Below are positions 1 to 62,423 of a stretch of 64,000 nt of DNA, in pieces (the first letter of the stretch is position 1; every line of letters begins with the position of its first letter). The DNA lies in NCBI GenBank assembly GCA_977018835.1, contig OZ361256.1, positions 4,898,001 to 4,962,000 of the forward strand. The letters are read 5' to 3'. A program made the position numbers and the translations under genes. The notes beneath the pieces were generated by a model that saw nothing but the letters and a program-made list of their open reading frames with translations, searched no databases and was not told where the DNA came from. The stretch comes from Minutocellus sp. GHC0000111 (Eukaryota).

Positions 1-516
1 ATCTTGGAAAAGTGGGAAATCAATTCAAAAGTGGGAAATGCTGCTACTTCGTCAGCGTCAGTGGCGAACACAATCGATCATGTGTTGTGAGGCTGAACAG
101 GAAAGTAGCCGGCGGTAAAAGGCCGAGATCATGAGTAAGTCCGGGATATGGTACAGGGCAAGCAGGCCAAACGGGCGTGCGTGCCTCTCCTTCGGCGCAT
201 CCGGCACTTTACTCGGTTGCTTTCCTTTTGTATTTATCATTTTTGCTCAACACCGGCCCCGCATCCCGAATTTGTCACAGGATCCTTGGTCCCACTTTCT
301 TTCGAGGCATTTGAGGTTTCTTTGGAGCCTGTTGCGGAATATTTTGAACTTCTTCGCAGTTCTTCCCACTCAAAATACATAATAAGCCTACAGCCTCATT
401 CATTCGTATTCAAGTATCGGCCTTGCGTGGATTTCTGAGAGAACGAGGTCAAGAGGACGCAAGAGCCGCAAAGACGCAAGAGCCGCAAAGTGCATGATGT
501 ACGGCCGTGTAGCGTA

Positions 517-538
517 CCTTTCGAGTTCAGAGGATTTG
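517..538. repeat. Left terminal inverted repeat of a Tc1/mariner-like element
   Basis: TA (515-516) followed by CCTTTCGAGTTCAGAGGATTTG; the reverse complement of 17505-17525 is identical except for one indel. Confidence 0.8.
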
Positions 539-841
539 AAAGTGACGTGATGATGACGTATTAGAAACACGACCACACCAGACCAAAAATCCAAGCTCAC
601 TTTTTCTAACTCCGAGGAATAAATGACGGCCAAGATGGAAGTCGGGGCAAGAACCAAGTTATGGTCACCAACTTCTACATATAGTCGAGAGATATTGTGC
701 ACCAGAACCAATAAATGTACATTATGTGATGATTTTTTTCGACATTTGCATTCCTCACCCCGGGAAAAAATAACATTTTTGGAAGCACCAAATCAAAATG
801 TAATGAATAGAAATGGACATGCTATGATAAGTTATAGCAAA

Positions 842-6450: not shown

Positions 6451-6642
6451 ATTTGCTTGAGATAATACATGTAACACGAGCCATCCGGTTTAAGATCAGA
6501 TCAAGTTGCAATGAAAGAAAGCTTGGACATCATCTCTTTTCCAGTAGGCTAGCTAAGTTGCGCTCAGAAGAAAAGTAACAAATTAGTCTGGTCGATCTAG
6601 CATGATACTATATAATCGTACTAGTACCGTACGCAGTATTGG

Positions 6643-8900: not shown

Positions 8901-9607
8901 GTTGGGAGGGTGGGTAAGGTGTGTGGGGAGGGGGCAAAGGCTGGAACACGAGTAGCGACGCGATTGGCACTTCCACTTCCACCTCACTGACGTGATGGAT
9001 TGTGGGAGCAGGTGAGAGCGAAATAAAGTGAAATCTGCGGCTGTGAGGATTAGTTTCGGCGTGACGTAAATTTCTGGGGGGGAAATGGGGAAACTCGCCC
9101 GACAAAAGCTCTTGGCCGGCAACAATGCCAAATCCACAACAATGGATACAACGGGGTCGGCAACGTGGGGTTGGTGTGGGGTGTGTATTGGGGGTTGGGT
9201 GTGGGGGGGGGGGGGCAAAACTGGCGACAAGCGCCAAGTTTCGCCAGGTCAAAAATTATAGGTTGACTTCCCGCTTTGCGAAAAGTGAGATGGGATCACG
9301 TACAGCCTGCAGTGTTTCATGCGTGAACGGACCAGCTCCTCCATCTCGCGACGCCCCTGTTTGATCGGACGCCTGCGAACCTAAGGTAAGTATGGGGCTT
9401 TTGAACGAACTTGGGAACTCCCCGATTTTTCGCTTGCTATCTTTCATGATTCCGAAACCAAGGCAAATTTGCATCACATTGCATTGGTACCTACCTACTC
9501 TAGCTACGTAGCTAGACTAGGCCTAGCTCTAGGTAGGCCTACGGTACTTGTGACAAAGCATCCACCACATCGCACATAGCAGTTTTTCGTGTATCGATAC
9601 CGTGGCG

Positions 9608-17289: not shown

Positions 17290-17504
17290 GTGTTCCTGCC
17301 AGAATCTACTGGACCTGCGAATTCAGTGGATACTACTGGTCGGTGGCAACCTACTGAATGAGCAGGTCGAGCAGACATCCACGACGAGTTGAGGAGCATT
17401 TTTGCGTTCCTCCCGAAGAGAACATCGACTAACAAAACACGTGGTGGGAAATGAGAAATGGGTGCAAGAATGACCTTTTTTAGGGGTTATTGGTATACCC
17501 TCTA

Positions 17505-17525
17505 CAAATCCTCTGAACCGAAAGG
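17505..17525. repeat. Right terminal inverted repeat of the Tc1/mariner-like element
   Basis: CAAATCCTCTGAACCGAAAGG followed by TA (17526-17527), upstream of the minus-strand transposase. Confidence 0.8.
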
Positions 17526-17871
17526 TACCATGGTACCTCTAGCTAGTACTAGCACTAGGCCTAGTAGCTACGTAGCTACGTAGGTAGGACATCGAGCCGT
17601 CATGAATTTCAGAATAACAGGATTAAAGGAGATCGGGGAAAACCCTAGACAATTAACGGCAAAGACATTGTCCTTGTTTCTGTACTTCAACATTTGAGAT
17701 TTTCTTTTTTGCTCGCTGCAAGCGACGTTGGTGTGACTGCGTGGGTGACTGATGATGGCCCTTGCGTTCGTTACTGGCTTGAGCGATTGACCCCTTGCAA
17801 TTTGTGGCGGCAGCAGCAGTGGTATCGATCGAAATCACTCCTCGTTAGCTTTTTGCGATTGAAAGCTTGTC

Positions 17872-20442: not shown

Positions 20443-20602
20443 AATTAACATGTCGTTTTTTAACATATGTATTATCAATAGCATTGTGGGGTGAGACCGA
20501 TTTGATCATTATTCGAAGCTCCTACAAGAAGCCGCAATGATACAGCGCATTTCTCACCACAGAGGGCACGGAGTCTCCGTGCAGAGAGGACTCTCCGTGT
20601 TC

Positions 20603-22197: not shown

Positions 22198-22694
22198 CAA
22201 TCGACTACTGGCTCTTTCGGGAGGGGGTGCCAGCTCTGGAACCTTTGCGGTTTGCTACTCTGCCGCAACACGTACAGCCAGTTATTTCAGCTGTGGCGAT
22301 GGCGATAAACGTGATGGGTTCAGACATCTTGCCGTTATTTACGGCGGAACCTCTCAAAGTACAACAAGTGAAGAATTTGCCGGGACTTGAAAACGAGCAC
22401 GTAGATCTGCAGATCTACGTACGTCATCAGAAAGGTCGGCATGTCGGCATGGCTGGCAAGCAAAGCGAAAGAAAGCGCTCTGCCTCTACATGTACATGTA
22501 GCTACGTACATGTAGCTACGTAGCTAGCTACGTAGATCTTCGCTCCGGCTCGCCTCTCTTCATAACCTTGAAATTAATACTATGACTTTTAGCTTTCTAT
22601 TAGACGGACACGAGCAGACAGGAATCCCATCTCGTGACATGCTAGAAATTGACATAAATCTTGAGAAAAAATATTAGCAAACGACGAGATTTTT

Positions 22695-24792: not shown

Positions 24793-26173
24793 CAGTCAGC
24801 TTCGCGCACCACCTGTTCTTCTTGGCTAATTTGGTCGAATTTTACTGCCGTGGCTTGCTTTCCATTCATTCTTGCGAAGATCAGTCGATTGAGTCAGTCA
24901 AATTGAGCCGCGGGAAAGTGGGGCAGCCATTCATGTGACGTCGAAGGGCTGTTGTTGTGCTCCGCATGAGCCGACCTTCAACGGTGGCATCGCCACAGAT
25001 TGGAAGGCCTCAACCCTCCGTGTTCAACACACAAGCTCTACTGATGCTGAACTGCAGACACACTGCATCGCGGCTCGAGGAGAAAACGTCAGTCAGTCAT
25101 CATCAGACCCATCCATGCAAAACTTCACTCATCATCGGCACACATCCATCCATCCATTGAAGGGCCCGTCCCAATCTACGAAGATGGTCGGCCTGCCATC
25201 AATAGCTTTAATTATTTTGCTAATGTGCTGCTGTTGAGTGTGTGCATGGTCAGTCGTCGTGCGGAGAGCCATCTGCCGCTGGTGGTGCCGTGTGTCGGTT
25301 ATCAGATCAAGAGTCGCGTTTGCCGGTTCTTGCAGCACGCTCGTGGTCGGCTGATCGCGCACTAGCATCAAGCGCCCAAGGAGGGCACTTCCTCGTCCAA
25401 GCGCAATGCCAACCACACGGACGGCAGGCGCCGATGGGTCAACACCACACCATCACCATCACAAAACATCACTCCGTCAAGACGATTAGGTTTACATCTA
25501 CTCAAAGAATCTGTCTCAAGCAACCAACAGAATGCAAAGAATAGGGGCGGGTAAGAGTTTACTGAACAGGGGCGGGATATCTGTCTTCTCATGATCTCTT
25601 CTGTCAATCTTTACACACGTCGATGATTGCAACCGTTTGAATCGACATTCGAAGAGGGGCGGGAGATGGAACCCGGAATGTTCAAGCGATGGCGACGGTC
25701 AGACGGCATTGCCATCTGTCTGCCGATCTCGATGGCAAGATTTGATTTGCTCATATTATTCCCATCTCTTCATCTTGGATTGTCTCCCGATACCTCAATA
25801 GTTAGTTATCGATAGACATTAGGAGAGATCTATACTCACGCTACTAGCTTTGTATATCTTTGAGCCTAAATATTATAGATATGTAATAAGTTGCACTGTT
25901 TTTTAATCAAACGGCTCTACCACATGTATGTATAATATATACTTTTTTAAGGGCTCCATCTTCCTTTTGGTATATAACAATCAAGTCTAAACATCGGTTT
26001 AGACTTGATTGTAATAGTTCCATTGCCGACTATCGGTATCGCGAGATCCGCTAACATTTGTCACTCTTTTGCGGTACCTTCACACTGCGAATAGCTAATA
26101 TAGATGCTATGCTCGTCGTATCGATACAAAGAACCCTCCTATATTTACTGTTTCTTTTGTACAATTGTACAAG

Positions 26174-28087: not shown

Positions 28088-28181
28088 GCTTTTCAGTTTT
28101 GCTTCCTCTGCCAATGCCGAGAAATGAAATAAGTGCGTGGCGTGGGCTGTGCATGTGCGTGGCGGGCTGCTACCTAGGCAT

Positions 28182-29386
28182 GGGGGTTGACCCGTGTACG
28201 TACACTAACAAAAATTTGGTCCGTCCGTCGTCCAATTTCACTCGTAAAATCTCCGTTTTGTTAGGAGTTTTCTCTCTCAACTTTGACTTCTTCTAAGTTG
28301 GTCAAAATCCAAAACCGCGTAGCCCCTTTCGGACACAGTGTTGGAATAGATGTGATTAGAGCATTGTGCAAGCTGGGCTTTCTGGTTCCAAAATCTCGTC
28401 GAGATACGGCACACGCCCAAACCATACCTCTTCGCGCGACGCTCATTTCGCCAACCTCTACCGTCCATGATGTGCCAAACAGCTCCAATGCCGCCCCCAC
28501 CTTGCAGACATCGAGCACTGTACATGTCCGATCATATGTGAGCTTTTGGGGTGAAACGGCGACCATTGAGGCCTCCTTCGTCGGCCATTGCCGCTGCCGA
28601 CGAAGCGTCAAACGACGCTTTTTTGGTGGTCATTTGCCATCATGTGCTGCACGCCAAGTCGATGACGCATCCCACCTACCGCCGCCAACACCTTCCAATA
28701 TGTCTACATGAGCGATTTGATGCCGGCGGCGCCACTGATAACAATTGTTATTGCCGTATCTTGGCTCAGCATCCGAGCCCTCGATAACGGCCGTTCGAAT
28801 ACGACCCCAACACTCATTTTTCGTATTCCAATTGGTCTGTCCGTCCATCCGTTCCCCCACCCTCCTCACGTGATGTGCTACCTTTCGCCACCCAACCATA
28901 ATTCGATACCGACCGCGCCACTTCTACCGATCAATTATGTCACAAGGGAGACTGTGTATCATTTTTGCTGCTTCCGGTCGTCGTGTTGTCGAGATTTTCT
29001 CGATGAAGCGAAGTGTTGGGGGTCGAAAAAATATTTTCGTATTCCAGAAACGATATTGGAGGTGGGATAGCAGCCGAAGGAAGAAGGCATACCGGCGAAG
29101 CAATGCATCAATCCGACCCTTATATATGGTAGTATCGTTGGTGTGGCGTGTGTCGATAGTTTTCGCTTGGAACATGGTTTCGGAGGTCTGTTTCAATTCG
29201 CTAGCATTTTGTTAGTGGCCAAAAAATAAGCTGGTAATAGAAACATCGATATCTCAACGAATAACTACAACTAGAAGTTCGTACCATTTGCATATCACTT
29301 CTCTAACATAGTAGTAGTGATATATGCAATAAAAGGTTGGTGTTTGAAAAATTTTTGTTAGTGAGTTTTACCACGGGTCAACCCCC
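28182..29386. mobile_element. Non-autonomous TIR DNA transposon (1.2 kb) with AT target-site duplication
   Basis: GGGGGTTGACCCGTG...CACTAACAAAAATTT at left and its reverse complement at right; AT at 28180-28181 and 29387-29388; no transposase ORF. Confidence 0.85.
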
Positions 29387-29487
29387 ATAGCTGCTGCAGG
29401 GCGGGCCCGCCAAAAAAACGCACGAAGCCAGACCACTCGACTGACTCCTCACTCGACTCGATCGACTCTCGAAAGCGGCAGACTTCA

Positions 29488-29683
29488 TGTTGAAACCGTG
29501 GGATACGTACGTACGTATACATACGTACGGTACGTACGGTGATCAGACCACTGACTCAGTGCCCTCTCCTGACCGTTGATCCATGGGCCAACGACATCTC
29601 CGATGGCCCATTTTTCATCTACGTAGGTCCTGTTAACCTCTACTAGCTATATCTATCTAGCTTAGCTTTAGGACCTCTTAGCA
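29488..29683 (+). repeat. 5' LTR
   Basis: Matches 35543-35738 with 3 mismatches in 196 bp. Confidence 0.97.
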
Positions 29684-29992
29684 GACCTACGTGATACATC
29701 TTTTCCACCCGTGCTCGCCCCATTTCGGTTCGCACCTCACCGGTTTGTCTTTTGGGTTTTCTCACTCGTCGTCACACGCAAGAAAAACCGACACATCTTC
29801 AATCGGCCAAAACGACCGTTTCTTTCGACAATATTGGAACGACGATCCAATCCCTTCCCCGAAAGTCCTGACCAGATCGACCCATCCAATCGATCACACT
29901 TCTCTGGATCGAACCTTCTGTCGATCACACGTCTCGCAGCAGCAACGCCGCCGTGCTGCCTGTCTTCGCTGCTGACTGACTGAAACACCAGC

Positions 29993-31287
29993 ATGAATCC
30001 CGACGCAGTTTTTGGCCAACCTCTCGGCGCAGCGCCGATTCTCCCCACCAAGTTAATCACACGTATGAATGACCCAGGACAACCTCCCCAACGCGAGCGT
30101 GTTGCCAAAGCGCTCAAGGAACTTCACAACAAGCGGCGGCCAGCACTGTTCTCCAGCAGGCAGGGTGCAATGACCACAACCTCGGCCATTTGGGCCTCGT
30201 CGTCAGCGATGCCGAACACACCACCAAAAGTAACGGCCGACCACATGTGCCTCCGGCAAATCCTGGCCCCAGCCCCACCATTCCCGCCGTGGCCAATCTA
30301 GACCAACAACGCGATTGTGCAATCCGGGGACGTTGCATCGAAAAGGGCCACTACAACTTGCACGAGCAAGTCAACACGGCGCTCAAGAATCTCCTCCTCG
30401 ACTCGATCGACGCCGTCTACATCAATCATCTCGAAGATGACATGCTCGGTTTCCAGCCAGTCACCATCCGCCAAATCATCGACAGCATTGCCGATCGCTG
30501 CTTGAAATTCAACGAGACTCAGAAGGAGGAATTAGAGAAGCAGCTCGAGAAGCAGCACGACGGGGGACCCATCGACACCCACATCGCCACATTCAACAAA
30601 GTCTTCAAGGCGTTTGAAACGGCCGGCGAACCCTTCACCAACAAGCAAAAGGTCTCCAAGTTCTGCCGCTCCGTGCGCAGGTTCTCATTGGCAAAGAAGG
30701 CATGCGAGGACTGGGACGACAGACCGGAGGCCGAACGCACGTGGGCCAACATGCAGTCGGACTTCCGCGATCGGTGTGATAAGAAGATGGCCAATGCCAC
30801 CACCGAAGCGGCAGGATATCATGGCGCGAATTTGGCCTCATCGGCCTCGGACGATCCATTTCTTTCTCGAGCCGATCTCCTTTTGGCTGACACCACCGAA
30901 GCCCTCAAGACCAACCAAGCCACGATGGCGATCCTCGCCAAAAAGAGCAACGAGAAGGATGACACCATTGCCAAACTTCGCCAAGAAATAGCTTCACTCA
31001 AGGCCGAGAACCGCGTTCTGCGTGAGGGACGCAACCATGCTGGTGGCAGTGGAGGCTGCCGCGGCGGTGGCCAGCAGAACGGCGCCGGCCACTTCCCAGG
31101 CCAAGGTCCTAACCTCAACCGCCAGGAGAAGCGGGAACTGCAGTCGATCCTCCCCAGAGGCCATTATTGCCACACGTGCGGCTATTCGTCCAACCACCCC
31201 AGCTTTGAATGCACTTGCAAAGGGCCCAACCACGTTGATAACGCCACCAAGTGCAATCCTTGCGGTGGTAGCTCGCGTCGTAACTGA
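29993..31287 (+). pseudogene. gag: Retrotransposon gag, frameshifted near 30130-30170
   Basis: GHLGLV motif, WxxxPEAERTWANMQ, C-terminal YCHTCGY...HPSFEC...H...AT..NP.GGS zinc-knuckle region. Confidence 0.85.
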
Positions 31288-34200
31288 GCGGGAGGGACGG
31301 TGGATATTAATCAGTATAAAATAGAGGACAGCATGTCTGAATCCACCTCCTCCCCGCCTTCGTTAGCTTTTCTTACGTCAAAAAGCAAACCTCCAACTCA
31401 AGAGCCAATCTTCCTCGCAGCAGACACTGGAACGACGGGACATTTTGTCCAGAAGCCCCAACACCCATCGTGCGATGGCCCTATTTTCAACGTCCAACAG
31501 ACAGCAATTCCTATCAGCGTCACCCTTCCGGATAACAGCACAATGACGAACACCCACGAGGCCACGCTTCGCCTCCCTGGGGTTTCCCCATCGGCTAGCA
31601 AGGCCTATATTTTCAACAACATGGCATCATCGCTCCTATCGATTGGGCAGCTGTGTGACGATGGATGCATTGCCACTTTCGATAAGGATTCGGTAGTCAT
31701 CGCCAAGGACAATGCCGTCATTTTGCAAGGTAAACGAGACCCCTCAACGAAATTGTGGATGGTAGATCTTAATTGCTCGCCCACCATGTCGCCGCTCCCC
31801 GGCCCCAACGTCATCCAACATGCTGCCAACGCCGCAATTGCCCAGGAGACGGTTCCGGAACGTGTAGCCTTTTTACATTGGTGCGCTGGCAGTCCTCAGC
31901 TATCTACCTGGTGCAAAGCAATCGATGCGGGATTTTATAGATCTTGGCCAGGCCTCACATCAAAGCTTGTACGTAAGCACATGCCACAGTCGATACCGAT
32001 GATTAAAGGTCACTTAGACCAGCAGCGCAAGAACATCAGGTCGACCAAGCCCAAACGGTCGATGGCTACGCCAAAATCTCTCCCTGGGGTGGACGAAACC
32101 GAGCAGGATCTCCACCCGGCACAACACCAACAGCGCACCAACTATGTCTTTGCTGATTGTCATGACATAACGGGCCAGATCTTCTCAGATCAGCCCGGCC
32201 GTTTCTTGGTATCGTCTATTTCTGGCCACCAGCACATAATGGTCGTCTATGACTATGACTCCAACAGCATCTTGGCCGAACCAAGGAAAAGCCGATCGGG
32301 AACGGAAATGCGCCGAGCGTACCAAACTATTTTCGAATACCTCTCCAAGCGAGGATTTCGCCCAAAATTGCAACGATTGGATAATGAAGTGAGTCGAGAG
32401 CTGAAGGAGTTCATGGAAGAAAAGGATGTAGATTTTCAATTGACCCCAACGCACTCCCACCGCCGAAATGCGGCCGAACGAGCCATTCGAACCTTTAAGA
32501 ATCATTTCATTGCGATTCTCTGTGGTGCCGATCCCGACTTTCCCCTCATCTTGTGGGATAAATTGCTGGAGCAGGCGGTAATGACCCTCAATTTCCTGAG
32601 AGCATCCCGAGTCAACCCTCGACTATCAGCGTACGAGCAACTCAATGGCGGCTTTGATTTCAATCGCACGCCTCTCGGCCCCCTCGGATGCAAGGTCATC
32701 TTTCACGAGATGCCCTCGGCACGCGGCTCTTGGTCCCCGCATGGCGTTGATGGGTACTATGTCGGTCCAGCCATGGAACACTACCGGTGTTACAAGGTTT
32801 GGATTGAGGAAACTCGGGTGGAACGCACTGGTAACACACTCGTCTGGCTCCCCAAAATGATTCCGGTGCCCAAAACGTCGTCGGCCGATGCAGCAATAGT
32901 CGCAGCTCATGAACTCCTGCACGCTCTACAGAATCCACATCCAGCGGCACCCCTTGCTCCCCTTCGAGACGAGCATCGTCAAGCTTTAGAAAAGCTCTCC
33001 GAGATTTTCAACAGCGTGACCCCAGCAGAATCTGCCACCTCCGCCTCTGATGAGACGATGCAGACAACCGCAGCTCCGAGGGTGCTGGAGAACGATGACG
33101 ACTCCCAACGATTCCGCCTCGGTACCATCGTCGCCAAAGTGTTTGGAGATCGCAATTACAAGGGTAGAGTCGTTGCATTTGACAAGAAGTATAAGTACTA
33201 CAAAATCAAATACGAGGACGACGACGTAGAAGAGATGAACGAGACTGAAGTAGGCCGTCACCTTGTCTCCAACCCCAACGCTCCGTTACCTCAGCCCCAG
33301 CAACCTCCGAGGGTGGCAAAATCCTCCACATGTGATGCAGCCACCACTAAAAGCCGTCGATCACGTCGATCCAACGCGCCACCTCGCTCGTCCGTTTCTT
33401 CCAACTACTACAATCCTTTGGCTGCAGCAGACGAGCCCAACGGCGACGATGATGATAATCATGACGACGATGCAACCGTCGTAACATCCAATCAAAGTTC
33501 CAATGCCCCCACCTCCCGTCGGCAACGTAAACGCAAGTCTCCAACGATCGATACCACTCCAACATTACCAGCTCCAGCAAAATCGACAAGCAAGTCCAAA
33601 CCATCGACCGCCAAACCACCTCGACGACGATCATGCCGTCAGCGAGGGTACATTCCACATCGGAACCCTCCCCCACGGCCATCATCTCGTCGTAGCACCC
33701 ACCACGTGGCCAACATGGCAGCTTTCTCGCCTTTACCAAACCTCCAACACTTTGCTAACGCCGTCGTCCATCCCGATACTGGTGCAATGCTTGAACACCG
33801 CGACCTCCTCAAAACGAACATGAGGGACCAATTCATTCAAGCAAACATCGATGAAATTGGACGGCTAACGGACGGCCGAGTTGGAAACAGTGCTAGCATT
33901 CCCTCCAATACAATGGCTTTCGTCCACTGGTCCGAACTGCCTCGGGGAAAAAAGCCACATACCTCCGCATTGTCGCCGACTATCGCTCCCATAAACCAAA
34001 TCCCAATCGAGTTCGATGGACTGCAGGAGGCGACAAAATTCATCACCCTGGTACAGTCTCGACCCCGACCGCTGAAATGTTGACTGCAAAGTTACTTTTC
34101 AACAGCGTCATCTCTACAGACAACGCTCGTTTCATGGGAATTGACATCAGTGACTTCTATCTCAGTAGCACCATGCCAGAGCCAGAATGGATGTGGGCGC

Positions 34201-35494
34201 CAGTAGCTCTCATCCCCGACGAAGTCATGGAAGCCTACGACCTCCACGACAAAGTAAAGAATGGTCGAGCATTGGTCAGAATCGATGGCGGAATGCATGG
34301 ATTACCCCAGGCAGGGCGCCTAGCCTACGATCAACTTGTCAAGCATCTCAAACCCCATGGCTATTTCCCTTGCAAGCTTGCTGCCGGCCTTTGGAGGCAC
34401 AAAATCCGCCCAATTACCTTTTGCCTAACCGTTGACGATTTTGGAGCAAAGCATGTCTCGGGAAAGAGCATGCAGACCATCTCATTCAGGCCCTCAACTC
34501 CAAGTATGAGATCACTGCCGATTGGGAAGGCCGACTTTATTGTGGCATTCAACTCGAGTGGAACTACGAGGCCAAATGGGTGGATCTATCTGTGCCTAAC
34601 TACGTCAAGGAGATGCGCCACAAGTTCCAACACGACCGCCCCTCACGGCCCGAGCATGCGCCACATCGATGGAATCGTCCGACGCATGGCCCGGGACCCC
34701 AGATGCCAGAACCGGAAGACGACTCACCACCACTCGACGCCAAAGGCATCAACGAAATTCAACAGGTGGTGGGCAGCTCCTTGCACTGTGGTCGAGCAAT
34801 TGATTCAACAATTTCACCGGCGCTCAATGGCATCTCAGCGGAACAATCCAAAGCTACCGAGCGCACTCGACAAGATGCCAAGAAGCTTCTAGATTACCTT
34901 GCAACCCATCCCGACGCAGTCATTCGATGCGTCAAGTCAGACATGATCCCACATGCACATGGCGACGCCTCCTGCTTGTCAGCCCCGAAATCAAGAAGCA
35001 AGCTCGGAGGGTGCTTCTACCTAAGCTCCCGACCTAAGGACCCGCACCGCCAGCCTGACTCAAGTGATCCCATGCCACCAATGAATGGAGCCATCCTCGT
35101 CAATGCCAATGTCATCAAGCATGTAATGTCCTCAGCCAGCCGCTGAAGCCGAATTGGGAGGATTGTTTTTCAACATGAAAGAAAGATGCATGCAGCACCA
35201 ATCCGGGCAGCACTAGAAGAAATGGGTCACCCGCAGCCCCCTACTGCTATCGTCGTTGACAACTCTACAGCATCTGGAATCGCCAATAAAACCGTCAAGC
35301 AAAGACGGTCTAAGGCCATGGACATGAGATTCCACTGGGTCCAAGATCGCACAGAGCAACGACAACTCCATCCAGGTGTGCCTAGGCACTGGAGGAAAGG
35401 AGCGCAAAATTTGGCCGATTATTTTACAAAGCACCATCCCGCCCGCTACCATGTCGACATGCGACCAGTCTACTTACATGTAGATTCCAATTAG
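31288..35494 (+). pseudogene. pol: Retrotransposon pol (PR-IN-Tudor-RT-RNaseH) with several frameshifts (about 33950, 34460, 35140-35190)
   Basis: ADTGTTGHF; SDQPGRF, LDNE, NAAERAIRTFKNHF; GIDISDFYL, GLPQAG, VDDFG; DAS, EAELGG, DNSTA, ADYFTK. Confidence 0.93.
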
Positions 35495-35542
35495 GACTCT
35501 ACATGTAGATTCAATGGCACTAGTCATTGATCTGCGAGGGTG

Positions 35543-35738
35543 TGTTGATGCCGTGGGATACGTACGTACGTATACATACGTACGGTACGTACGGTGATCA
35601 GACCACTGACTCAGTGCCCTCTCCTGACCGTTGATCCATGGGCCAACGACATCTCCGATGGCCCATTTTTCATCTACGTAGGTCCTATTAACCTCTACTA
35701 GCTATATCTATCTAGCTTAGCTTTAGGACCTCTTAGCA
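35543..35738 (+). repeat. 3' LTR
   Basis: Copy of 29488-29683, followed by TSD CTTCA. Confidence 0.97.
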
Positions 35739-35866
35739 CTTCAGTCAGTCAGCCATGCCAAGCGGGATCTGCAGAACTACATGTACCGGTACTGCAGATC
35801 TAAACACATGTACAGCCAGGTTCTACATCAAGTACACATTGTAATACTCTAAAAATAAGATTCACC

Positions 35867-37884: not shown

Positions 37885-38327
37885 GGCACGACGAGACTAC
37901 TCTAGCTAGTCTAGAGTAGGCTACAGATGTGCAACTGAACCTGCTGCAGGAAGGGAGCCCTGTGGCTGGCATGGTCCTCAGCCTGACGCCTGACTTCGCT
38001 CAAGCGTCATGCTCGTCAAAAAAGACCCGAGGGGGGTACTTCGAGGTTGCAGCACAAGTGCGAGAATAATTGGTCGCCCAGACTGAGTTTTCATGTCGAG
38101 GTTTGTCGAGGTTGGTAGATCTACCTCTTCAAGATTGCAAGATGACAATTCGATAAAATTTACGCAGATTTTATTTATGTATATACATGTATCGCGGCAG
38201 GTATCGAAAGAGGTCTTCAGGGGGCAAGGTTAGGGTTTAAATCTACAGTACATTGAAGCCACCAAAGCTGCACTTCGATCGGTGGCAACACGCATTGTAA
38301 TCGCATGTGTCTCCTTCCTCTCAATAT

Positions 38328-39353: not shown

Positions 39354-39812
39354 GTTACAAATCCTTCACTCAGCCACACATCATCTTGAAATCTTGCTCC
39401 CCACTCGCCATGCGTCACTCGCTCGGCGCCCTGCGGTGGTGGTGGCTGGTGGCTGGTGGCTGCGGTGGCTGAAGAATGAGGCGGCTTGCGATAAAATATG
39501 GTGGGAATCGAGGAATCGAATCCGGGACCCCCCCCCTTACTTACGATGCTCACTGCTTACTGCTTAGGCCTACTGGGCCCCAGTACGAGTACCTAGGTAC
39601 ATGTATCAGCAGAGAACAAGTTATCAACGGAGTGCTATTGCTTGTTCCATCGTATTAGTCTGCATTTCGCCCAGATTGTGCCGGATACGACTATATTTCG
39701 TCAGGAAAGAGCGCCGGCCGCGAAGGTTGAGGCCGTGCCGTTTTGCGTTGAGCGGCTTGATTGCTTGATTTTTTAGGCTGGCATTCCAGCATCCCCTGTG
39801 AGCCTGTGAACC

Positions 39813-40910
39813 ATGATGAGAGCAATTCGATGCCACCGCTTCGCTGCTCTCGATTCCAGCGGGCGGATTCTAAAAGATGTCTCGGCCTATTCTCCCCTCA
39901 GGTCAGTGTTGGCCGTTGAGCATGTTCCTCGGCCGCTCATCGAACGACCAAATGATGTTCTCATCGCAACTCATTATGCTGGCGTTCAATATCCAGATGC
40001 GTTGCAGGCGCAGGGGCTTTATCAGCATCGACCTCCCCTGCCGTATGTTCCAGGGCTAGATGTGTCTGGGACGGTGCTTGAGGTTGGAAGTCGGGTGTCA
40101 ACTTTCCGGGTCGGTGATCGGGTGATTGCTCAGGCTCCGCTGGATCTTGGATGTTTGGCGGATGTCGTTCGAGTTGACGCGAACGATGTGTATCATGCGC
40201 CAGACAACATCGCCTTGTCTCGGTTGGCCAACATTGGCCGCAATTATTTTGCATCGTATCATTCGCTCAAGGTCATCGGTAATGTCAAAAGGGGAGATCT
40301 CGTCCTGGTTGATGGAGCGTCGGGAGGAGTAGGAATGGCAACGATTGAGCTTGCCAAGGCAATGGGAGCCACGGTCGTTGCTGGTGTGAGCTCGAAAGAA
40401 AAGGCTCAATACCCAAAGGATGTTGGAGCAGACGCCGTCCTATGCTATGGTCGAGACAAGGAAAGCTACAAGAACTTCAAGAAGAATGAATTTCGGAAAG
40501 TGTCGAAAGAACTGGGGCACCCTCAAGGAGCCGATGATGTGGTCGATGTAGTCCAGGGCGGACTCTTTGAAGATGCACTCATGTCCTGCGTAAAGCCGTT
40601 AGGAACAATATCCTTGGTTGGCTTTACCGCTGGCCAAAAGCCGATTAGGCCAGGCCTTGTCCTTATCAAAGAAGCCAAGATTGTTGGCAGTCTCTGGGGT
40701 CGATGGGCAAGAGAGAATCCGGAAGGTCATCGTCAAAATGTCCAAGAGATGCTGAATTTTATGGAATCGGGCGCCATTAGACCCAGGGCCGACAGAATAT
40801 TTTCCGTTGAGGATGCCATCGAGGCCTTTGAGTTGTTTGAATCTAACAAAGGTCGAGGGAATACGGTCGTTGATTTTACAACTGGCCGGGATCCAAGATC
40901 GAGGCTGTAA
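39813..40910 (+). CDS. NADPH:quinone oxidoreductase (zeta-crystallin/MDR family), probably peroxisomal
   Basis: [30 protein letters not shown]-terminal SRL is a PTS1 signal. Confidence 0.92.
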
Positions 40911-41014
40911 ATTTAGCAGAGTAGAGACACATATTAGATATTCAACCATATCAAGACTTAATTTTAAGTTAAGCTCCATTGCTAGCTAGCACTAGACTAG
41001 CTAGTAGATCTAGA

Positions 41015-44000
41015 CTAGAGGCCGCCAGGAGGAGGCCACTCCCAGACGCTCTTGTTAGTCTTGGTGTCAAAGAAATACCAGCGTTTCTGTGACTTGGACC
41101 AAACACACATCCATCCTTGTGGTAAATTGATGGCCGGCTTGACACTTGGATTTTGTAGATCAACAGCAGCGGGCTCGGGGGTCGACGACGTCGCTGCTCC
41201 TGCTGCCATTTTGCTATCTGATGGCCGCTTTTCGAGACCGGGACGTGGTACTGGGGACGCTCCTTGAGCTGCATTCATCTTTCCATCGGACGGCCGCTTC
41301 TCCAAACCAGGTCGAGGAGGCGGGGGTCGCTTCTGTTGCTGGTTGTCGGCCATTGAGGGGGGTGCAGGCTTCGCCCTTTCCCCTGAAGACAATGGGGGAG
41401 GAGGTCTCTTCTTGGACTCGGTCGGTGGTGGAGCTGCAGGTGACGATGGGGAGTTCTCTTGTGCCGACGGTGACGGAGAGGGTGTTTTGAATGCCACAGC
41501 TCCCTCCAAATCACCATCTCCGGCCAGTATTTCCGTCGAAGATGCCCTCTTCACACGCTTCGACCGAGGGGTGAGCTTGGGCAGTCCACCGAGCTTGTGC
41601 TTGCGATCATCTGCATGGTGAGGAGATCTTCTCGAGATGCCAGCAAACGCTGCTTCGCCTTCTCCTTCTACAGGAGAGGAATATCCCCCATCGTGTGGAG
41701 GAGATCCCGGTGGTGATACATCAGGCGTCTCATGATGAAGAGGAGGGCGCTGGCTGGAGAAATCCTCGGGAATGAGCGAATCCCCTCTTCTGTCTTTGTA
41801 GGGGTTGCCAAAGTTGATCATCAGGCGTGTCTTGACTCTCGTTTGCACAGAATCGACGAACTCTCCCGTTTTGGGGTCAAAGAATGTTGTGGGCAATGCA
41901 TCATCGTCGACACTCCAGTTCGGGGAACCATCTGGTGCGGTTGTGGCCGCAGAACCGGTAGAATCATTACAACCATAACCGACGACGGGCTTCCGACTCC
42001 AAAGCAATCGCTCGCGATAGTCGCCCATCTCACTGATTTTGGACTTGTTGAGCATGGAGGCCCCCACACCGCAAAGAGATATAAGTGACTCATCGTCAAT
42101 AGAGTGATTTGCTTCGTAGTAATGACAGTTTCCACCATCATTGTTTACCCCTTCGACCGACAATCCTCGTGTTGTGAGTCCAGAACCACCAAAGATCCAT
42201 CTCCTTCTGGATTCAAAATAAGCAAGTAGGCATTCCGCTGGAAGATCTCCCAGAGATTCGGTAGCTGGGGGTGGAGTGCTTCTACCGATGAATTTCTCGT
42301 CATCTTTTCCATTTTCATCGCCATCTCCATTCCCACCGCCACCCTTCTTCTTTGCCTTGGCAGCACCGGCTCTCCAAGGTGGTGGCATGTTTCGCAATGC
42401 CGCCAGATAACTATGCACAGATGCCCTGGGATCGTACTGACCATATCCAATTACTGGTGCCGCCGCAGCGTCAAGGCCCTGGCGTCTGCCATCGTGGTTG
42501 TGAGTCTCAATTTGCTGGACGCCTCGGCGACGGAGCTCGGCCTCCTGGCGTTCGAGCCTTTCGTTGGTTTCACGTGCCACCTTTTCGCCCTGGCGAATCT
42601 TTTGAAGACAAGAACGAGAGAAGCACTGCGCTGCGATGCTTTCGTAGCTATCGGTACTTAGAAGTGATTGTGCCGAGGATGGAAGAATAGGACGAAGGCA
42701 ACGTCGGAGAGCATGTTGATAATAGGGTGGAATGCGAAAGAGATATGCTCGGAAATCAGATCGCCATTGCTCATCCAGGGGTACATTCCGAGAAGTAACG
42801 GTGCTGGAACTTTGCTGTTGCTTCTTGATGAATCCAGCCGTAGAACCTCCCTTGGCAGCAGCAGAACTGGACGCTGCAGCCTCCTTTGATTGGACTGATT
42901 TCTTCAGTTGCATGTTCTCCAACTCGGCAGCACGAACCAAGAGCGGCAGCAGTATGTGAGGCTCTGGTGGTAGGAGCGTGATGGATGATAGAGCACCACC
43001 AGATTCCGATGAGAATTCTCCAGCCGATTGGTCCGATAAAGCGACTCTATTGTGGGGTAGGTGCAATATCCCAATGTTGAGCACATTTGAATTGTCGTCC
43101 TCTGATAGGCCAGTCGACCCGCACCACGCACAGATACCAGAAAGTGCTCATGGCCGCGTTGAGACTTGGGAGCGACGCCGCCCCTCTTGCCATCCTTGCT
43201 GATCCAATCGCAAACGTAGACATCCCTGGACAGCAGCTTAAGCGAGGCTTGCATCTGACTCGATGCGTTGGCGTCGGCGAGCAATTGCTTGTTGGAAGTG
43301 ACCAACTGATCCAATCTATGGAGCAAATTCATGACTTCGAGAGGGTCAAAGGTGTTGAGAGTACCCACGTGGTGCTGCGGATGTCGAGAGAAGGTCAACA
43401 CCGGCTGTCCTGTCCTCGGCGGTAGTGTATCCAGCTTCTTGTCGGGAAAGAAAGACTCTGGGATGCAAAAGATTGGTGCAGCATAAATCTGCGCTTCGTT
43501 GGCGGTATCGGTCCTCGAGGGCACGTGCAGCAGTAAAGCTCTATGCATGGATGTTTCGCCGCCCTCAAGCTGCTGGAACGAGCAGACAGGCCCGGCGTTC
43601 ACAAAGACGCCAGATACGTTCATAGACCCCTCCGCCTGCTCTTCCGAAGTAGGAGGAGCCATGGAAGGGTGGCGGAGCGGATTCGGTATTGGCATCTTCT
43701 GGGGCAGAGATGGAGCGATAATTTGAAGCAGCCGTTCCGATACTTGCGATAGGGCCGACGAGGACTGAATCGAGGTGTAGCAGCCACCCGTCACCTCACA
43801 GAATGCCTGAAGGGACGGATGGAGGGAACGCGAGGCGTTGCTTCCAACTCCAACGCAAAATATCCTCTGATCCCAGCGGAATGGCTCGCGGTAGAAGTCC
43901 CTAAGTGGGGCGCTACCAAATTGAAGTTGCAGATTCCCACCACCCTCGGTGGGTGGCTTCCGCAGGCACTCTCCGTCCGTGAGAAGTACCAGACAAGCCG

Positions 44001-44733: not shown

Positions 44734-45093
44734 GGTGGACAAGCCAAGACGTAGCTAGGCAGCAAGATACGCCGGAGGGGAAGCGGAACTGGAAACTGGA
44801 AATGAGCACAGCAGCTGGCATGGCGGCATGGCATGATGGCGATGGCGCGATGCATGGCGCATGCATGCATCGCGCCATCGCATCGTCCTTGAAATCGGAA
44901 GCCACTAACTTTTGAAAATAGTGCTTTGCAAGCCGGCTCATTTTCGATTTCCGCGCCATTTCCCCGCTCCCCGCCCCGTTGTATCGGCGCCGAGCGAAGC
45001 CTCCTGCCGAAGTTTCAAAGTCAGCCGCGCTCGCTCGGTGCTGAGGCAGGTCAGCAGTAATACTAACTTTCCCTCCCTTGGTGCATTGCCGGC

Positions 45094-52952: not shown

Positions 52953-55900
52953 TCAACAACGTCTTTTCCACTCTTTTGGTACATTATCATAAGATAATTC
53001 GCCAGTTTTGGACACCGCCGGTCGCAAGATATCGTAAGCAACCTTGTTCGTCAAACACCGCCTAAGAGCACTGTAAACATAATATGAAACGCAACCCTCG
53101 TTTTTCGCTTTTTTGAATATTCGAATCAGCAACGCTTCGCGACGCTTATCTGTCTTAGGCAGTTGATTACCGATGGTATTCATCAGATGCGAATACGTCA
53201 CGGCGCTCGGCTGAAACGTGCCGTCTCTATTGGCTTCCAATAAGGCATAGGCGTCAAGTGCAGTTTGGAGAACAATACTAGTATTGGATTCTAGCTCACA
53301 CCTGGCACAATATTGTAAAATGATATCGTAATGGCGTGTGGTAATGATATCTCCATGAGTCTTTGTCATTCTCTCGAGAAAGGCATTCAATTGACAGCGC
53401 ATCGGGTTGCTCGAGCTGTGCCAACATTACGCTGAAAAGTACGACATGTTATTTGGTGAAAAAAATGGGTAAGGAATCGGGAGCGGAGATTTTTGAGGTG
53501 CAGAACACATGCTTTTGCATGCGCAAAAAGGGATTCCGCCAAAAAATTGTATACTCACTACTCCACGACTTTGGGATCTGGCCGAATGTCCGCCGCGACC
53601 ATTTCATCAAATAATTCCATAGCTCGGACACCATTATTGGCTCTCCCATATCCGCTGATGAGAATTGAGTACGACCACAAATCTTTTGATGGCATTATGG
53701 CGAAAAATTCATCAGCCTTTGTCAGTTTGCCTTCTCTGACAAATGCCTTGAGAACATCGTTGAAAATCACGGAGTCGATGGTTATCTTGCCGTCGCTGGA
53801 TCCTACTACATGTCTGAGAAATTTTGTAGCCTTTGACCCGAGTCCATCTGAATTATCGTCGTCGTCGGGGGCCGAGGTGAGCAGAGTCAAGAGAGTGCTT
53901 ACCGTGTATTTGTCTGGTTTGCAGTACTTCTTCATCCTTGAAAGGACAGTTTCAGCCCTTGCCCATGCTTCGACTTTATCATCCATACTGCGGTAACTCG
54001 AAATCAAAATGTTGTAAATGAGGCAGTTGGGTCTGACTTTTGCCCTTTTGACTACTGGTACCGATGACTTTTCCAAAGTAGATTCGTGCAGCTGCTCGAT
54101 CTTGTCTACCAAGGACTCTATTCGTCTTATGTAGGACTCTGTGTTTTCGGGGTCGCGAGAGGATTGCTTTAGGAGGTAAGAAATAATGGACGCAAACGAA
54201 TGGACATTTGGTTTCGCACATCGTACGATCTGGTCACCATTCGCTTTTGCTTCTTCCGCTGCAACTTTATACCGATCAATAAGCTCAAAGAGGACTGCCT
54301 CTGCTTGCTCTACTTCTCCTGACCGACAAAAGCCGTCGATCACAGCATTGTATTGTTGTGTCCCATCTTGATGATCGTACCTGCGTCGACTTTCAGGAAT
54401 TGAATCCTCGAACTCTCTGAGCCAACGGAGCTTGTCGGCATTGTTTCCATGCGCGTCAATAACGATGGCGTATGAAGTAGAATCTGGTAGAGGAGTAACA
54501 GGATGATTCTTCTTGACATATTGCAATAGCTCTTCCGCTTCCAAGGGCATTCGGGCTGCTCTATAGGCACCTAAAACATCGTTGACATAGTGTAAAGACA
54601 CCCGAGATGCCTCTCCATAATGGCGTCGCATGTAAATAAGTTCATCGAGGTAGTGACGGGAGCGCTCGGCACAGTTTCTCAAAATTTCCAGGGACACCTT
54701 CTTCGACGCGTCCCTTGCCGCAAGTGTCCATGCAATTAAAGCCGTTCCGTACGTAATCTCATCAGGTGCTCTCTCATAAATTTTGTTGTCATCTTCAAGA
54801 GATCCAATAGAAGCAGATGTAGGCATATTGTTGATAATCTCATCGATTCGCTCACAGCTTCGGTAGCGATCAGACCAACTGCGCTTCTTCACAACAGCGT
54901 GGATCCCCACCAATGTGTTGTAAACAACTGTGTTCACATACTCCCTTGGCATTTCAGCAACAAGGCGATCAGCTCGTTCCACTGCGTCAGGCAAGTTTGC
55001 TTTGGAATAAGCTGACAGAACAGTGGAGTATATACGAGGATTGGTGGCAATATTTTGCTCCTTAATCTGTTCCAAGAGCCTCTCGATGTTGTCGACTGCA
55101 CTCGCTTGACCACATCTAGACCAAGCCTGCATGACTAAACCAAAGCTAAGAGCGGTGGGACCTGCACGAGAGACGTCTTTGGTACTATTGCATTCCTCTT
55201 CGGTGCGAAGATCTACCATCAATTGTAGGATTGCATCTGCCCGCTCAGCGGCATCATCTTCATGCTCGTTTTGGCGGGCGCTGCGACCACCCGTATCCCT
55301 CCGACGGCCGCCACCCGCCCCACGTTCCCGTCTCAAGCTATTGGTCCAAGCAGATATCACAGTATTGAAGGAAACTGAATCAGGCCGTACGAATTCCATG
55401 AGCGCCACGCTCTCTCGTTGTTGTTTCGGCGACTTCAAACCCAGCCATTCATCCTCTTCTAAACCGGCCTGGCCTTCTGCCCCCGCATTCGCCATCTCCA
55501 GTAACAATCTCTCAGCCCGAAGAGCTGCTTCCCTGGAGACTTCACGGCCTGCACCTGTGTTAGTTGAAGATGCAGCAGCTGCCCAAGAACTCATTGCCAT
55601 ATTGTAAAGTTTCGTCATACTGTAGCAAATCCGATCACACTCGAGATCGTCCGCCGAAACGTGCACTTCTGCTGTAATCAAACGCCGTAAGCATTCATCA
55701 ACCAGCTTGGCATTTCGGAGAGGATCACGGCGCTGCTTGTTAGATGCAAACGATGCAGCAGCTGCGTCGCCTTCGCTACCCAATCTCAAGTCCTTGCCTG
55801 CCTTGCTTTCCCTTGATAGAGCCTGAATCGTCAGCCCAACCAAATGAATTGTATTGCTCACATCCTTGGCAAGTAGCTGTGTTGAACGCTCCATGGGCAA

Positions 55901-56533
55901 AATATGAAAGGTTAATATCGAGTAGCACAATCCAGCGGGAGTTAGCCTCACTTTCTCCATACTCGAGGACGTAATCATCATGATACCAGGTGGTATGAGC
56001 AATCGATTTTCTCGTTTTGCTGCCACAATGTTATCCGTCGATTCTCGCTCAAGCAGACGGAGGGACGTGCGATCGCCGCGAGTTCCCCCGTAGTGTCGAA
56101 TAACGGCACGCGCTTCATCAAATCTTGCAGGCGTTTGCGCCATTTCACTGCTGGTGGATACCTCTTGAACATTCTCAGCAACAAATCCGCCAATTCCAAA
56201 TGAGTGAGGTTTGAGCCTGAGCTTGCCCTTGTAATTATGATCGACTGCATTATTTGGTGGCCGGATCAGAAGCGAACGAGCCACTTCCTCAACATTTTCA
56301 GTGCTCCTCCCCGGTACTCCTTCGATTCTAGTAGGTCTATCTCTGCCTCGACTTGCAAATGTCCGGCGGCGTGAGGATAGATCTGATGCAATGGACGCAA
56401 TGACCATCGCCGGATGGGTCGGGGGGCAGACGCAGCATCGGGTACTGCCCGAGATCGTCACATGACGAACGGACGCATGAGTCGCTGGTAATGCTCTCGA
56501 GGACGACCGGCGAAGTAAAATATGCCGAATCAT
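52953..56533 (-). CDS. Pentatricopeptide repeat protein, probably mitochondrial; intron about 53556-53432 and an apparent frameshift in the last exon
   Basis: Repeats such as PDSVSFNTVISAW, NTVVYNTLV, PDEITYGTAL, QYNAVIDGFCRSGEVEQAE, WSYSILISGYGR; Arg/Ser-rich N-terminus. Confidence 0.9.
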
Positions 56534-56848
56534 GTTAGCCTAGCTACCTAGCGGTTGCGATGCTGTCGATGCCGACGACTGTTGCGCCGTTGTAATGTCC
56601 ATTGTGGTCCTTCGGCCCCGCTCCGAAAAATCAATGGTCATCTTTCCGTCGTCCGTCAAAGGCCCTGCAGCAGAAGCTGATGCGCCTGACTGTACCTAGG
56701 TACATGTATTACCGGTAGATCTACCGGTAGCTAGGGATTCCTAGCTTCTACATGTGTAGCTCGCTAGAGTCTACCGGTCGGTACATGTACCGGTAGAGAG
56801 ACTAGAGATCTAGATCTAGATTTTCTACAAATGTACCGGTAAATTCTG

Positions 56849-57997
56849 TTACTTCTGGTTCTTTTCCCAGACATCTGAGTAAGCCCTCAAACTGGAGGCC
56901 AATCGGCGCATGCATAGACTCTTTATTACAATGCATCGTGGCTCCAGTGCATAGCTCAGTCCATCGATCAATGAAAGTGATTCCAGGATACCATCCGGTC
57001 CAGATAGACCACCTATATCGGCGTACAATACGTCAAAGCCCCTCAATATGCTTTCTGCTGAAACCAACGCGGCCAATTCCTCGATGCTAATGAACCTTTC
57101 TTGATCCTGAGCATGTCCAGTGATCTCCACGCGTCACCAACAGCAAAGTACATATCTGGATGTTCCTCCTTTGCAGCCAACTTCCAAACACTCATCACTA
57201 TCTCGGACGACATAAGGTATTGTTCGTCGATACTCCTCAACTCCAACCCCAGCAATAATATATGGGCGACCATCGCGACTTGGACTCTTGAAATCTCGCT
57301 GTACGGTCCCATCAAAGAGCCGTTGAGCATGAACGAGGCGACGAGAGAGCGAGGCGATGGTCTTGCTCTTCACTATTACCGCCCTCGGTCGCTTGTTTCC
57401 CCTTCGTGTCATGTCATCTACGAATTCGAATATAGTTGATAGGGCAGTAAGCTCCAAATCGTTGCCGAGCATTGCGGTGATATCCAACACTAGAACATCG
57501 AACGGGCTCTCGATATTCTCGTCCAAGATAGTTTTGAAATGAGAGAACTGCTCCAGCTCAACGTAGCATGCATTTGCTTCATTACTACCACTGCTGTCTT
57601 GAAACATGTTAGGATCCCTCGATCCCTGACCACTTCTGCCAGAAGTGGTCTCTGTGCGTTTGACATCAACAAACACACCGTGCCCTTCTTCCCCAATCGC
57701 GCCTCGAATTGTTTCTGTACACGAATCCAGCTGCGTGCCGAGCTCCAAAACGCGATCACCTTGTCGAATGTACTGCGATAACGCTCGGCTGTGTTCTACC
57801 GTTGAGGTTGTGGCGATGTATGGGATGGGCTTGACTCGGCTTTTACTCGTACTGCTGCTACTACTAGAAGTTGCTGGTGCTGATGCTGATGCCGATGATG
57901 CCACTTTCGATTTTTGAGGTGACGAGATCTGAAATGCCTGAACTAAGCACACAAAACGCCACAGCGCTACGGCGAGAGCGATGGTTTGTTTCCTCAT
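56849..57997 (-). pseudogene. Plastid-targeted protein with tandem SAM-methyltransferase-like domains, disrupted near 57170 and 57050-57090
   Basis: Signal peptide plus VQA/F; RVLELG...FDVLVLD...IVKS repeated as CLEVGC...FDVLYAD...IVIKS; the second repeat is split over three frame segments. Confidence 0.65.
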
Positions 57998-58297
57998 TAT
58001 AGCCTGAACAAGCAATACACTTATACTGATCACCGCAATGCAAACGGCAGTGAGCGAGCCAACCGAACCTGCAACTTGCAAACTGCTGAGTGACGCCTGA
58101 GCGGCGATGCGATGGAGACGGCTAGGTTCCTACGGACGAAGGAAAGAGCACATGATGGCGCTAGCGCTGGCGCGGCGGCTCGCGTCGCTGGACTGGCCAA
58201 CGTTGAACGCTGGGTATTGCATTTTGAATGAGCGGCATTGGCCAGCGAGGAGGAGTCAAGTCAACCGCCACAACAACCAAAGAAGTACAGGCGACTC

Positions 58298-62328: not shown

Positions 62329-62423
62329 ACGCTGATAGCTCAGTTGGTAGAGCGGTGGACTGTAGAGGCGCCAACAGGCGAAAAGTTATCCATCGGTCGG
62401 AGGTTCGATTCCTCCTCAGCGGA
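62329..62423 (+). tRNA. tRNA-Tyr(GTA) with 22-nt intron (62366-62387); A1:G72 mismatch
   Basis: D arm GCTC/GAGC, anticodon stem GTGGA/TCCAT, CTGTAG loop, T arm GGAGG-TTCGATT-CCTCC, discriminator A, downstream T-run. Confidence 0.93.

Follow-up and report, generated by a model that had tools for sequence, protein, structure and literature searches.

What writes the short palindromes, each bounded by TA, that crowd the spaces between genes in this stretch of diatom DNA? The DNA analysed, 64 kb in all and called here the window, is gene-dense and about 51% GC, and its focal cluster is a run of 22 short segments with common TA dinucleotides. An earlier note had ascribed such clusters to repeated inverted micro-duplication at TA sites, by hairpin opening, snap-back synthesis or Tc1/mariner excision, perhaps with a TpA-directed lesion in common with the hypermutation of local transposons, or else to promoter or terminator elements. 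We compared these readings on the window and on related DNA; the features concerned are listed in Table 1.

TA-anchored palindromes are enriched between genes

We counted perfect TA-anchored palindromes of 6, 8 and 10 nt under an approximate mask drawn by hand from the ORF lists, in which intergenic DNA totals 7,044 bp, and compared them with dinucleotide shuffles of each interval. The sample was the 64-kb window together with some 9.5 kb of sister-species DNA, and all P-values in this work are uncorrected for multiple tests. The enrichment over shuffled controls that the earlier note had proposed to look for was found in the window: intergenic DNA carried 64 palindromes against 8.1 ± 2.8 expected (maximum 16 in 200 shuffles), an approximately eightfold excess. 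The corresponding values were 11 versus 3.5 ± 1.9 in introns (maximum 13), 20 versus 11.9 ± 3.3 in coding DNA (maximum 18 in 30 shuffles), 6 versus 2.7 in transposon interiors and 9 versus 0.7 in one LTR. Over the whole window TACATGTA occurred 14 times, with 0.29-0.57 expected under order-1 and order-2 Markov models, and every one of the ten most enriched palindromic 8-mers contained TA. When 16 anchors were ranked, TA reached a z of 18, and the signals of AC (8.2), CT (4.8) and AG (4.5) consisted mostly of words overlapping the TA clusters. Intergenic density was about 7 units per kb (49 in 7,044 bp).

Clusters of TA palindromes between genes are real. The four palindromes quoted in the earlier note are all perfect and lie where it had placed them, at 56710, 9499, 17523 and 22402, and the clusters that it listed, including the one in the LTR, are all present. 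Perfect 8-mers numbered 37, against an excess of about 20 forms with one mismatch; this low load suggests that the units are young or maintained and, by our own arithmetic, suggests an age near 6-7% divergence if they are neutral.

Clusters are chains of short segments with common TAs

The clusters are best described as chains of the form TA-s-TA-s-TA, in which short segments are joined via common TAs. In the focal chain, segments 1-11 are CC, GG, CATG, T, CCGG, GATC, CCGG, GC, GGGATTCC, GCTTC and CATGTG, followed in segments 12-22 by GCTCGC, GAGTC, CCGGTCGG, CATG, CCGG, GAGAGAC, GAGATC, GATC, GATTTTC, CAAATG and CCGG. The vocabulary is small (CATG, GATC, CCGG, GGCC, GC, CG and CC/GG), and as spacers between consecutive TAs its words stood well above expectation: CATG 9 versus 0.07, GC 20 versus 2.1, CCGG 5 versus 0.03, GGCC 4 versus 0.08, GATC 4 versus 0.13, CC/GG 11 versus 2.0 and CG 7 versus 1.0, with TCGA at 3 versus 0.08. 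Complementary ends were present in 89 of 106 segments of at least 2 nt, and 115 of 121 segments started with C or G, in 14 clusters picked by hand and eye, a choice by which these figures overstate the genome rate. The unselected spacer table gave complementary ends in 29/55 two-nt and 32/48 four-nt spacers, about 4.8 being expected in each. In the window, cores starting with G were as common as those starting with C, and TACCWGGTA was found 0 times. GC/CG alternation was favoured, intergenic TAGCTACGTA being present 9 times and TAGCTAGCTA once.

Each cluster has its own sub-vocabulary, and a pooled null lies far lower. When the segments of each cluster were shuffled among themselves, palindromes of at least 16 nt were nearly as frequent as observed (8 versus 6.9, P = 0.36) and those of at least 12 nt showed a mild excess (22 versus 15.1, P = 0.03). 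Long palindromes therefore largely follow from chaining. The 'nested' palindromes of the earlier note are thus real as TA-anchored words, but at 16 nt or more show no excess beyond the segment shuffle. Adjacent identical segments were not enriched (7 versus 9.5).

Two simple origins of the chains were rejected: that the clusters are homologous copies of a MITE or dispersed repeat family, since most of 28 cluster pairs lay at the segment-shuffle null, and that they grew from stop codons, since most of 18 gene ends start no unit. Five of the 28 pairs were clearly above the null (P ≤ 0.05) and one more stood at 0.05, uncorrected. As separate observations, an exact phrase of 18 nt is common to the clusters at 39589-39606 and 56692-56709, and three rare asymmetric spacers are common to the focal cluster and the sister-species locus L042, in the same relative orientation, with overall similarity at the null.

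Table 1. Positions in the window of the TA clusters, mobile elements and genes discussed in the text.
Feature	Position	Strand	Remarks
Transposon-like end, 24 nt	515..540	+	Matched at 17503-17527 (-)
Internally deleted transposase gene	~1738-3365	-	End 515..540 lies 3′ of the gene
Cluster	6550..6637	.	Convergent gap, 3′ of DEAD-box helicase stop
Cluster	9489..9547	.	Divergent intergenic region
Cluster	17526..17588	.	Abuts transposon-like end; upstream of ABC1 kinase gene
Two clusters	22399..22540	.	Tandem intergenic region
Element, terminal inverted repeats in two parts, start G(G/C)(C/T)	28177..29391	.	Flanked by TA and TG
(TACG)n cluster	29504..29536	.	Inside 5′ LTR (29488-29683); identical in 3′ LTR (35543-35738)
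Cluster	35778..35812	.	~40 nt from copia 3′ LTR
Cluster	37898..37925	.	Outer CTC...GAG pair, asymmetric interior
Cluster	39565..39605	.	Divergent promoter
Quinone reductase	39813-40910		Relatives 97% identical; Odontella aurita relative 69%
Cluster	40983..41017	.	Convergent gap; its end is the TA of the INTS6-like gene stop codon
PPR gene	53558..56533	-	Likely ATG 56533, ~160 nt after the focal chain
Focal chain, 22 segments via common TA	56693..56841	.	
Host gene upstream of focal chain	56849..58000	-	No Pfam family

Flank tests separate excision scars from copying

We give about an even chance to the reading that cut-and-paste transposons of the Tc1/mariner type, which target TA, left the clusters behind as piled-up scars of their excision, lengthened afterwards by slippage and fold-back. 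An element would insert at a TA and duplicate it, and excision would leave on each flank a few unpaired letters of its ends, which are identical. Where these 2-nt overhangs cannot pair with each other (CA, CC, GA, GG), fill-in and joining would yield TA-XY-Y'X'-TA; overhangs that are self-complementary (GC, CG) would anneal and yield TA-GC-TA or TA-CG-TA. The new TAs of a scar, standing in a C/G context, could be hit again, each hit making TA-s-TA out of TA and lengthening the chain, and hits inside scars that contain TA would leave an interior unrelated to the outer pair (C...G, CC...GG or CTC...GAG) that encloses it. Slippage may account for duplicated or stretched forms (CCGACCGG, GAGATC, GATTTTC), messy excision would remove whole clusters and leave filler, and the only places where the events would persist are intergenic DNA, introns and LTRs. 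The TA anchor and the common TAs have the shape of inserts bounded by a duplicated TA, the duplication being inferred from that form.

A doubtful though possible alternative dispenses with transposons and holds that a pre-existing TA-X(Y) was repeatedly reverse-copied during replication or end-joining repair, by fold-back or template switch or by hairpin opening. Local template switches are a documented class of mutation, and short ones produce local inverted repeats and hairpins like those seen here; the excerpts of that work give no dinucleotide anchor or fixed vocabulary, unlike the clusters (Loytynoja and Goldman 2017, PMC5453318). Such copying does occur in the window, at the non-TA hairpins of 44839-44881 and the GFA 3′ end, but it leaves the specificity for TA without a reason.

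The flanks bear on this alternative in several ways. The core was repeated in the flank of 32 of 78 units, compared with 34.9 by permutation, and for 4-nt cores in 9 of 37 compared with 8.5. Flanks thus repeat the core no more often than chance, which leaves duplication of a staggered cut, as well as fold-back that returns at TA, unsupported; the flank test is also compatible with a half-core copied from a pre-existing TA-XY. Nor was TATA enriched (39 versus 47 expected), so hairpin opening of the TA flank is unsupported. With neither the predicted copy of the core nor an excess of TATA, the hairpin-opening and snap-back routes of the earlier note are not supported as such. Copying of whatever comes after TA is rejected because the vocabulary departs from the supply of TA-XY, to which it is not proportional (chi2 68, P = 1e-8). 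GCGC/CGCG cores (TAGCGCTA and TACGCGTA) were nearly absent, at 1 versus 14 expected, with TAGCTA present 25 times and TACGTA 16 times, the TAGC and TACG starts coming largely from the TAGCTA and TACGTA 6-mers themselves. This gap, a further point against fold-back, would fit two identical ends joined by annealing of self-complementary overhangs. The lack of enrichment of adjacent identical segments also speaks against fold-back.

Other features favour it. Mirror symmetry of the flanks continued past the TA in 42 of 78 units versus 29 expected, over 2 bp in 18 versus 8.3 and over 3 bp in 13 versus 4.9. The arms are of variable length and run into the flanks, and the focal strand folds well (-30 kcal/mol, z -4.7 versus 200 shuffles). 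The mild excess of palindromes of at least 12 nt, the cluster-specific sub-vocabularies and the GC/CG alternation point the same way. The flank symmetry is also predicted if insertions nest at the central TA of a scar that contains TA, and examples of this form are TA-C-TA[...]TA-G-TA in the sister-species loci L001 and L042 and CTC[...]GAG at 37898. Outer symmetric pairs enclosing asymmetric interiors that consist of TA-chain units only, as at L001 231-265, count against fold-back. As to the inverted micro-duplication inferred in the earlier note, symmetry does extend beyond TA, and fold-back may contribute, but the predicted copy of the core in the flank is absent.

Comparison with known excision footprints also gave a divided result. 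The likeness to Tc1/mariner lies in a duplicated TA around a few letters, and TACATGTA itself is on record as a rare Tc1 footprint (PMC3520976, in an excerpt citing Eide and Anderson 1988); the Sleeping Beauty footprint is described in part of another source as cag/ctg between TAs (PMC5224488). In the soma of C. elegans, by the part of the report consulted, one-sided TATGTA/TACATA makes up 73-78% of Tc1 footprints (bioRxiv 10.1101/2025.10.09.681459). In contrast, window units do not match this one-sided predominance, their cores being mostly two-sided and symmetric: one-sided CA/TG (9 versus 6.3) and GA/TC (4 versus 6.5) were unenriched, and CC/GG was enriched (14 versus 3.7). The window further differs in its cores, of which there are six or more, several G-starting, and in chains up to 22 deep; the scar reading needs at least six different end sequences, half of them with G as first letter. 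Ends that start with G are unusual for Tc1/mariner elements.

The resident transposase has a predicted RAG1 fold

The earlier note had derived a possible TA-CC-GG-TA footprint from a local terminal inverted repeat starting with CC. One copy of this end, at 17503-17527, directly abuts the cluster at 17526-17588, and the other, judged by its position, would belong to the internally deleted transposase gene. A full-length relative of that transposase, P0149, is 96% identical to it. Pfam and PDB sequence searches left P0149 unclassified, and its fold, predicted from an alignment of 53 sequences (pLDDT 83), gave as best Foldseek matches RAG1 (E = 4e-13), RAG1L and Transib; an Atlas search also listed RAG1 clusters at 0.87-0.90. 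For P0154, folding from its sequence alone gave a model too poor for use (pLDDT 49). The modelled structure thus indicates that the resident transposase is probably of RAG1 fold and not of the Tc1/mariner type, and the CC-starting end, adjoining it, lends the TA-CC-GG-TA derivation no support. The RAG1-fold element is multi-copy, with clusters of 9, 57 and 23 members. Its transposase has a long coiled-coil insertion and no Pfam family, and its ends do not start with CAC. Since both copies of the CC-starting end are preceded by GTA, the first base of the end is not fixed; the other ends of the two elements were not found, and a search of viral and prokaryotic collections with the end pattern gave 0 matches.

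That the clusters are hairpin scars of this RAG1/Transib-fold transposon is highly improbable. The element is present in many copies and one matching end touches a cluster, but hairpins formed by the flanks of a TA target predict TATA, and those of a 4-bp TA-XY target predict XY behind the unit, and neither form is enriched. By established chemistry the RAG1-fold class makes hairpins of the flanks and keeps no letters of its ends there, as part of a review of the field describes for hAT and V(D)J (PMC5224488), a point against excision scars from the CC-starting end.

A Pfam scan of 35 window ORFs showed no Tc1/mariner transposase as a source of the scars that we prefer. The element at 28177-29391 is about 1.2 kb long, has no ORF of at least 150 aa, is unclassified and directly adjoins the copia element; from its ends, TA-flanked G-ended elements may exist. 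The copia LTR element has the target duplication CTTCA. Among smaller structures, a hairpin element of 36 bp at 25977-26012 (16-bp perfect arms, 4-nt loop, TAA-rich context) is possibly a minimal MITE. Hairpins without TA stand at 44839-44881 (18-bp arms, 7-nt loop) and at about 20560-20600 (8-bp arms, a direct repeat nearby), and both look like templated repair products. We also observed a PTM/DIR17-like Tudor domain both in the copia polyprotein (33120-33260) and in a host PHD/CXXC gene (11030-11140).

Clusters differ between sister species and between haplotypes

Among the 42 loci that a metagenome scan yielded, two were close and syntenic, L001 and L042, and both come from a sister species with 76-86% nucleotide identity to the window. 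The sister species uses matching words (GATC 7, CG 7, GC 5, CATG 3 and CCGG 2), and in the three orthologous gaps compared the segments differ from those of the window. L001 and L042 overlap in one promoter, where they are nearly identical save for two blocks: both TA clusters of L001 are absent from L042, one of them replaced by a filler of about 11 nt, a presence/absence difference that carries no direction of gain or loss. In one X14 contig, 31 other letters replace 39518-39659, removing the 39565 cluster. The part of a rice study that we used describes deletion with filler as a common outcome of excision (PMC4423477).

Contigs of four runs were aligned over 19.8 kb. Among the 12 of 330 indels and 40 of 1,946 substitutions listed, X2 and X5 contigs align inside the focal cluster (56801, 56804) and carry there two one-base insertions that fall outside the grammar. 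The proposed comparison of alleles and strains therefore came out both ways among the differences listed: whole clusters are polymorphic, but the two focal insertions are off the TA-anchored pattern. A clean empty-site allele, with plain TA against TA-s-TA, was found neither in L001/L042 nor among the indels listed. Joints in X2/X5 (39514-39631, side 25) and in X10 (40926-41014) hint at cluster loss; their alignments are uncertain and they were not counted, and neither was a CATG unit at the stop TA of the upstream gene in a loose end of X5, a single contig of doubtful origin.

These alignments make an assembly or amplification artefact scarcely credible. The sequence is palindromic and of low complexity, and contigs were compared, not raw reads, which would favour an artefact; however, contigs of other runs align within the cluster among the rows listed, the independent metagenome contigs L001 and L042 carry the same grammar, and the words are for the most part kept out of coding DNA. 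The cluster patterns, searched for in viral and prokaryotic collections, gave 0 matches or 30 isolated chance matches, with no clusters.

The same comparisons bear on selected cis-elements, that is, sites for homodimeric transcription factors or chromatin or 3′-end signals kept by site turnover, a reading that we consider unlikely. It draws support from the oomycete Phytophthora: excerpts of promoter studies there list TACATGTA (M93/motif-1/AM-20) and TACCGGTA (M94) as abundant motifs (PMC3597505, PMC3520976), and part of a further paper reports that PsMyb37 binds TACATGTA (PMC11134190). These are identical words, abundant in the non-coding DNA of another stramenopile. They are treated there as factor-binding sites, and unlike our clusters no chained multi-core grammar or loss from a haplotype is described in the excerpts (PMC3597505, PMC3520976, PMC11134190). 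A low mismatch load could likewise reflect selection, the copia LTR retains its (TACG)n cluster while the interior of the element is TA-poor, and both species preserve TACAATTGTA 3′ of the DEAD-box stop. Against selection, whole clusters are missing from one promoter haplotype, the clusters are present in divergent, convergent and tandem gaps and in introns, different cores share TAs at zero spacing, and the positions expected to be conserved in orthologous promoters are not, the segments differing in a small sample of three gaps. Two or more units were present in 2/4 divergent, 2/6 convergent and 3/4 tandem gaps, with no clear preference for an orientation. The promoter or terminator elements suggested earlier are thus disfavoured by orientation and by presence/absence between haplotypes, and secondary use of the clusters as promoters or terminators is possible. 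As a local observation, TACAATTGTA lies just 3′ of the helicase stop at 26160-26169 and at L042 609-618, in surroundings that have diverged, and is a possible 3′-end signal.

TpA hypermutation appears separate from cluster formation

The transposons of the window show TpA to TpG/CpA change on both strands. Their rho(TA) is 0.35 (516-3700), 0.28 (15800-17525) and 0.47 (29488-35738), the 0.28-0.35 of the first two comparing with 0.46-0.62 in host genes. Amino-acid differences reachable through TpA number 40 of 81 distinct ones among transposase copies versus 18 of 82 in a host control, Tyr to His/Cys swaps recur among transposase copies that are 95% identical, and each of the three LTR differences is readable as a change at a TA step. 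The TAs of the clusters are mostly intact: of 180 words consisting of TA and a core, 98 are followed by TA and 18 by CA/TG.

It is very unlikely that the palindromes are written by repair of breaks at TA in unique DNA, made by the TpA-directed lesion to which the transposons owe their hypermutation. The change itself is real here, and transitions at the TA site show a small excess among one-mismatch units (11 versus 2.3), but the process destroys TAs and the clusters create them, and staggered-cut duplication around TA is not supported. In Bigelowiella natans, a preprint consulted in part reports TpA hypermutation of integrated viral DNA that is substitution-only, and the term 'palindrom' is absent from its main text (10.64898/2026.01.13.699255). 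Its TA to CA/TG signature is identical to that of the window transposons, but hypermutation of this kind is substitutional and removes TAs, which makes it a neighbour of the clusters and not their cause. The shared lesion of the earlier note thus holds as regards the hypermutation of transposons but not as regards the clusters, from which TpA hypermutation appears separate. No report of TpA hypermutation in diatoms was found in the literature outside subscription journals.

Clusters as a possible pile of excision footprints

The best reading is that the clusters work like a pile of excision footprints, putatively of the Tc1/mariner type with both overhangs kept. TA dominance, complementary ends, absent copies of the core, a vocabulary not proportional to supply and deletions with filler all fit scars. 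Against them stand the failure to find a Tc1/mariner element or a clean empty site, the mirror excess in the flanks and the unenriched one-sided CA/TG. The Tc1/mariner footprints of the earlier note are accordingly the mechanism that best fits the grammar, but no such transposase was found in the 35 ORFs scanned and no empty site among the alleles compared.

We tentatively propose a broader picture, which could well be wrong, in which many TA-targeting families, G-ended ones included, seed themselves in each other's scars and leave filled-in two-sided footprints as fast-turning palindromic promoter and terminator DNA; the oomycete TACATGTA/TACCGGTA motifs would be the same scars, later adopted by factors such as PsMyb37. 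The excerpts of one Phytophthora study raise a footprint origin of TACATGTA and dismiss it without a test (PMC3520976), those of another source make no mention of footprints (PMC13469147), and no description of chained TA palindromes in diatoms was found in the literature outside subscription journals. If the clusters are scars, transposon traffic with no recognisable element would be one of the chief sources of a compact algal genome's regulatory DNA, the vocabulary would record which families were active, and motif-finding in diatoms and oomycetes would take products of mutation for binding sites, some of which factors may have adopted later. Were fold-back the cause, it would be a TA-specific mutation process not yet described.

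Genes around the focal chain

The stop codon TAA of the host gene upstream of the focal chain occupies 56849-56851, 7 nt before the chain. Within this gene, at about 57100-57180, we noted an in-frame stop and a change of frame near 57134 with no obvious intron, and one X10 contig skips 57062-57177. Farther along the window, ARAGORN gave no assignment to a tRNA gene with an intron at 62329-62423, which by eye is likely Tyr.
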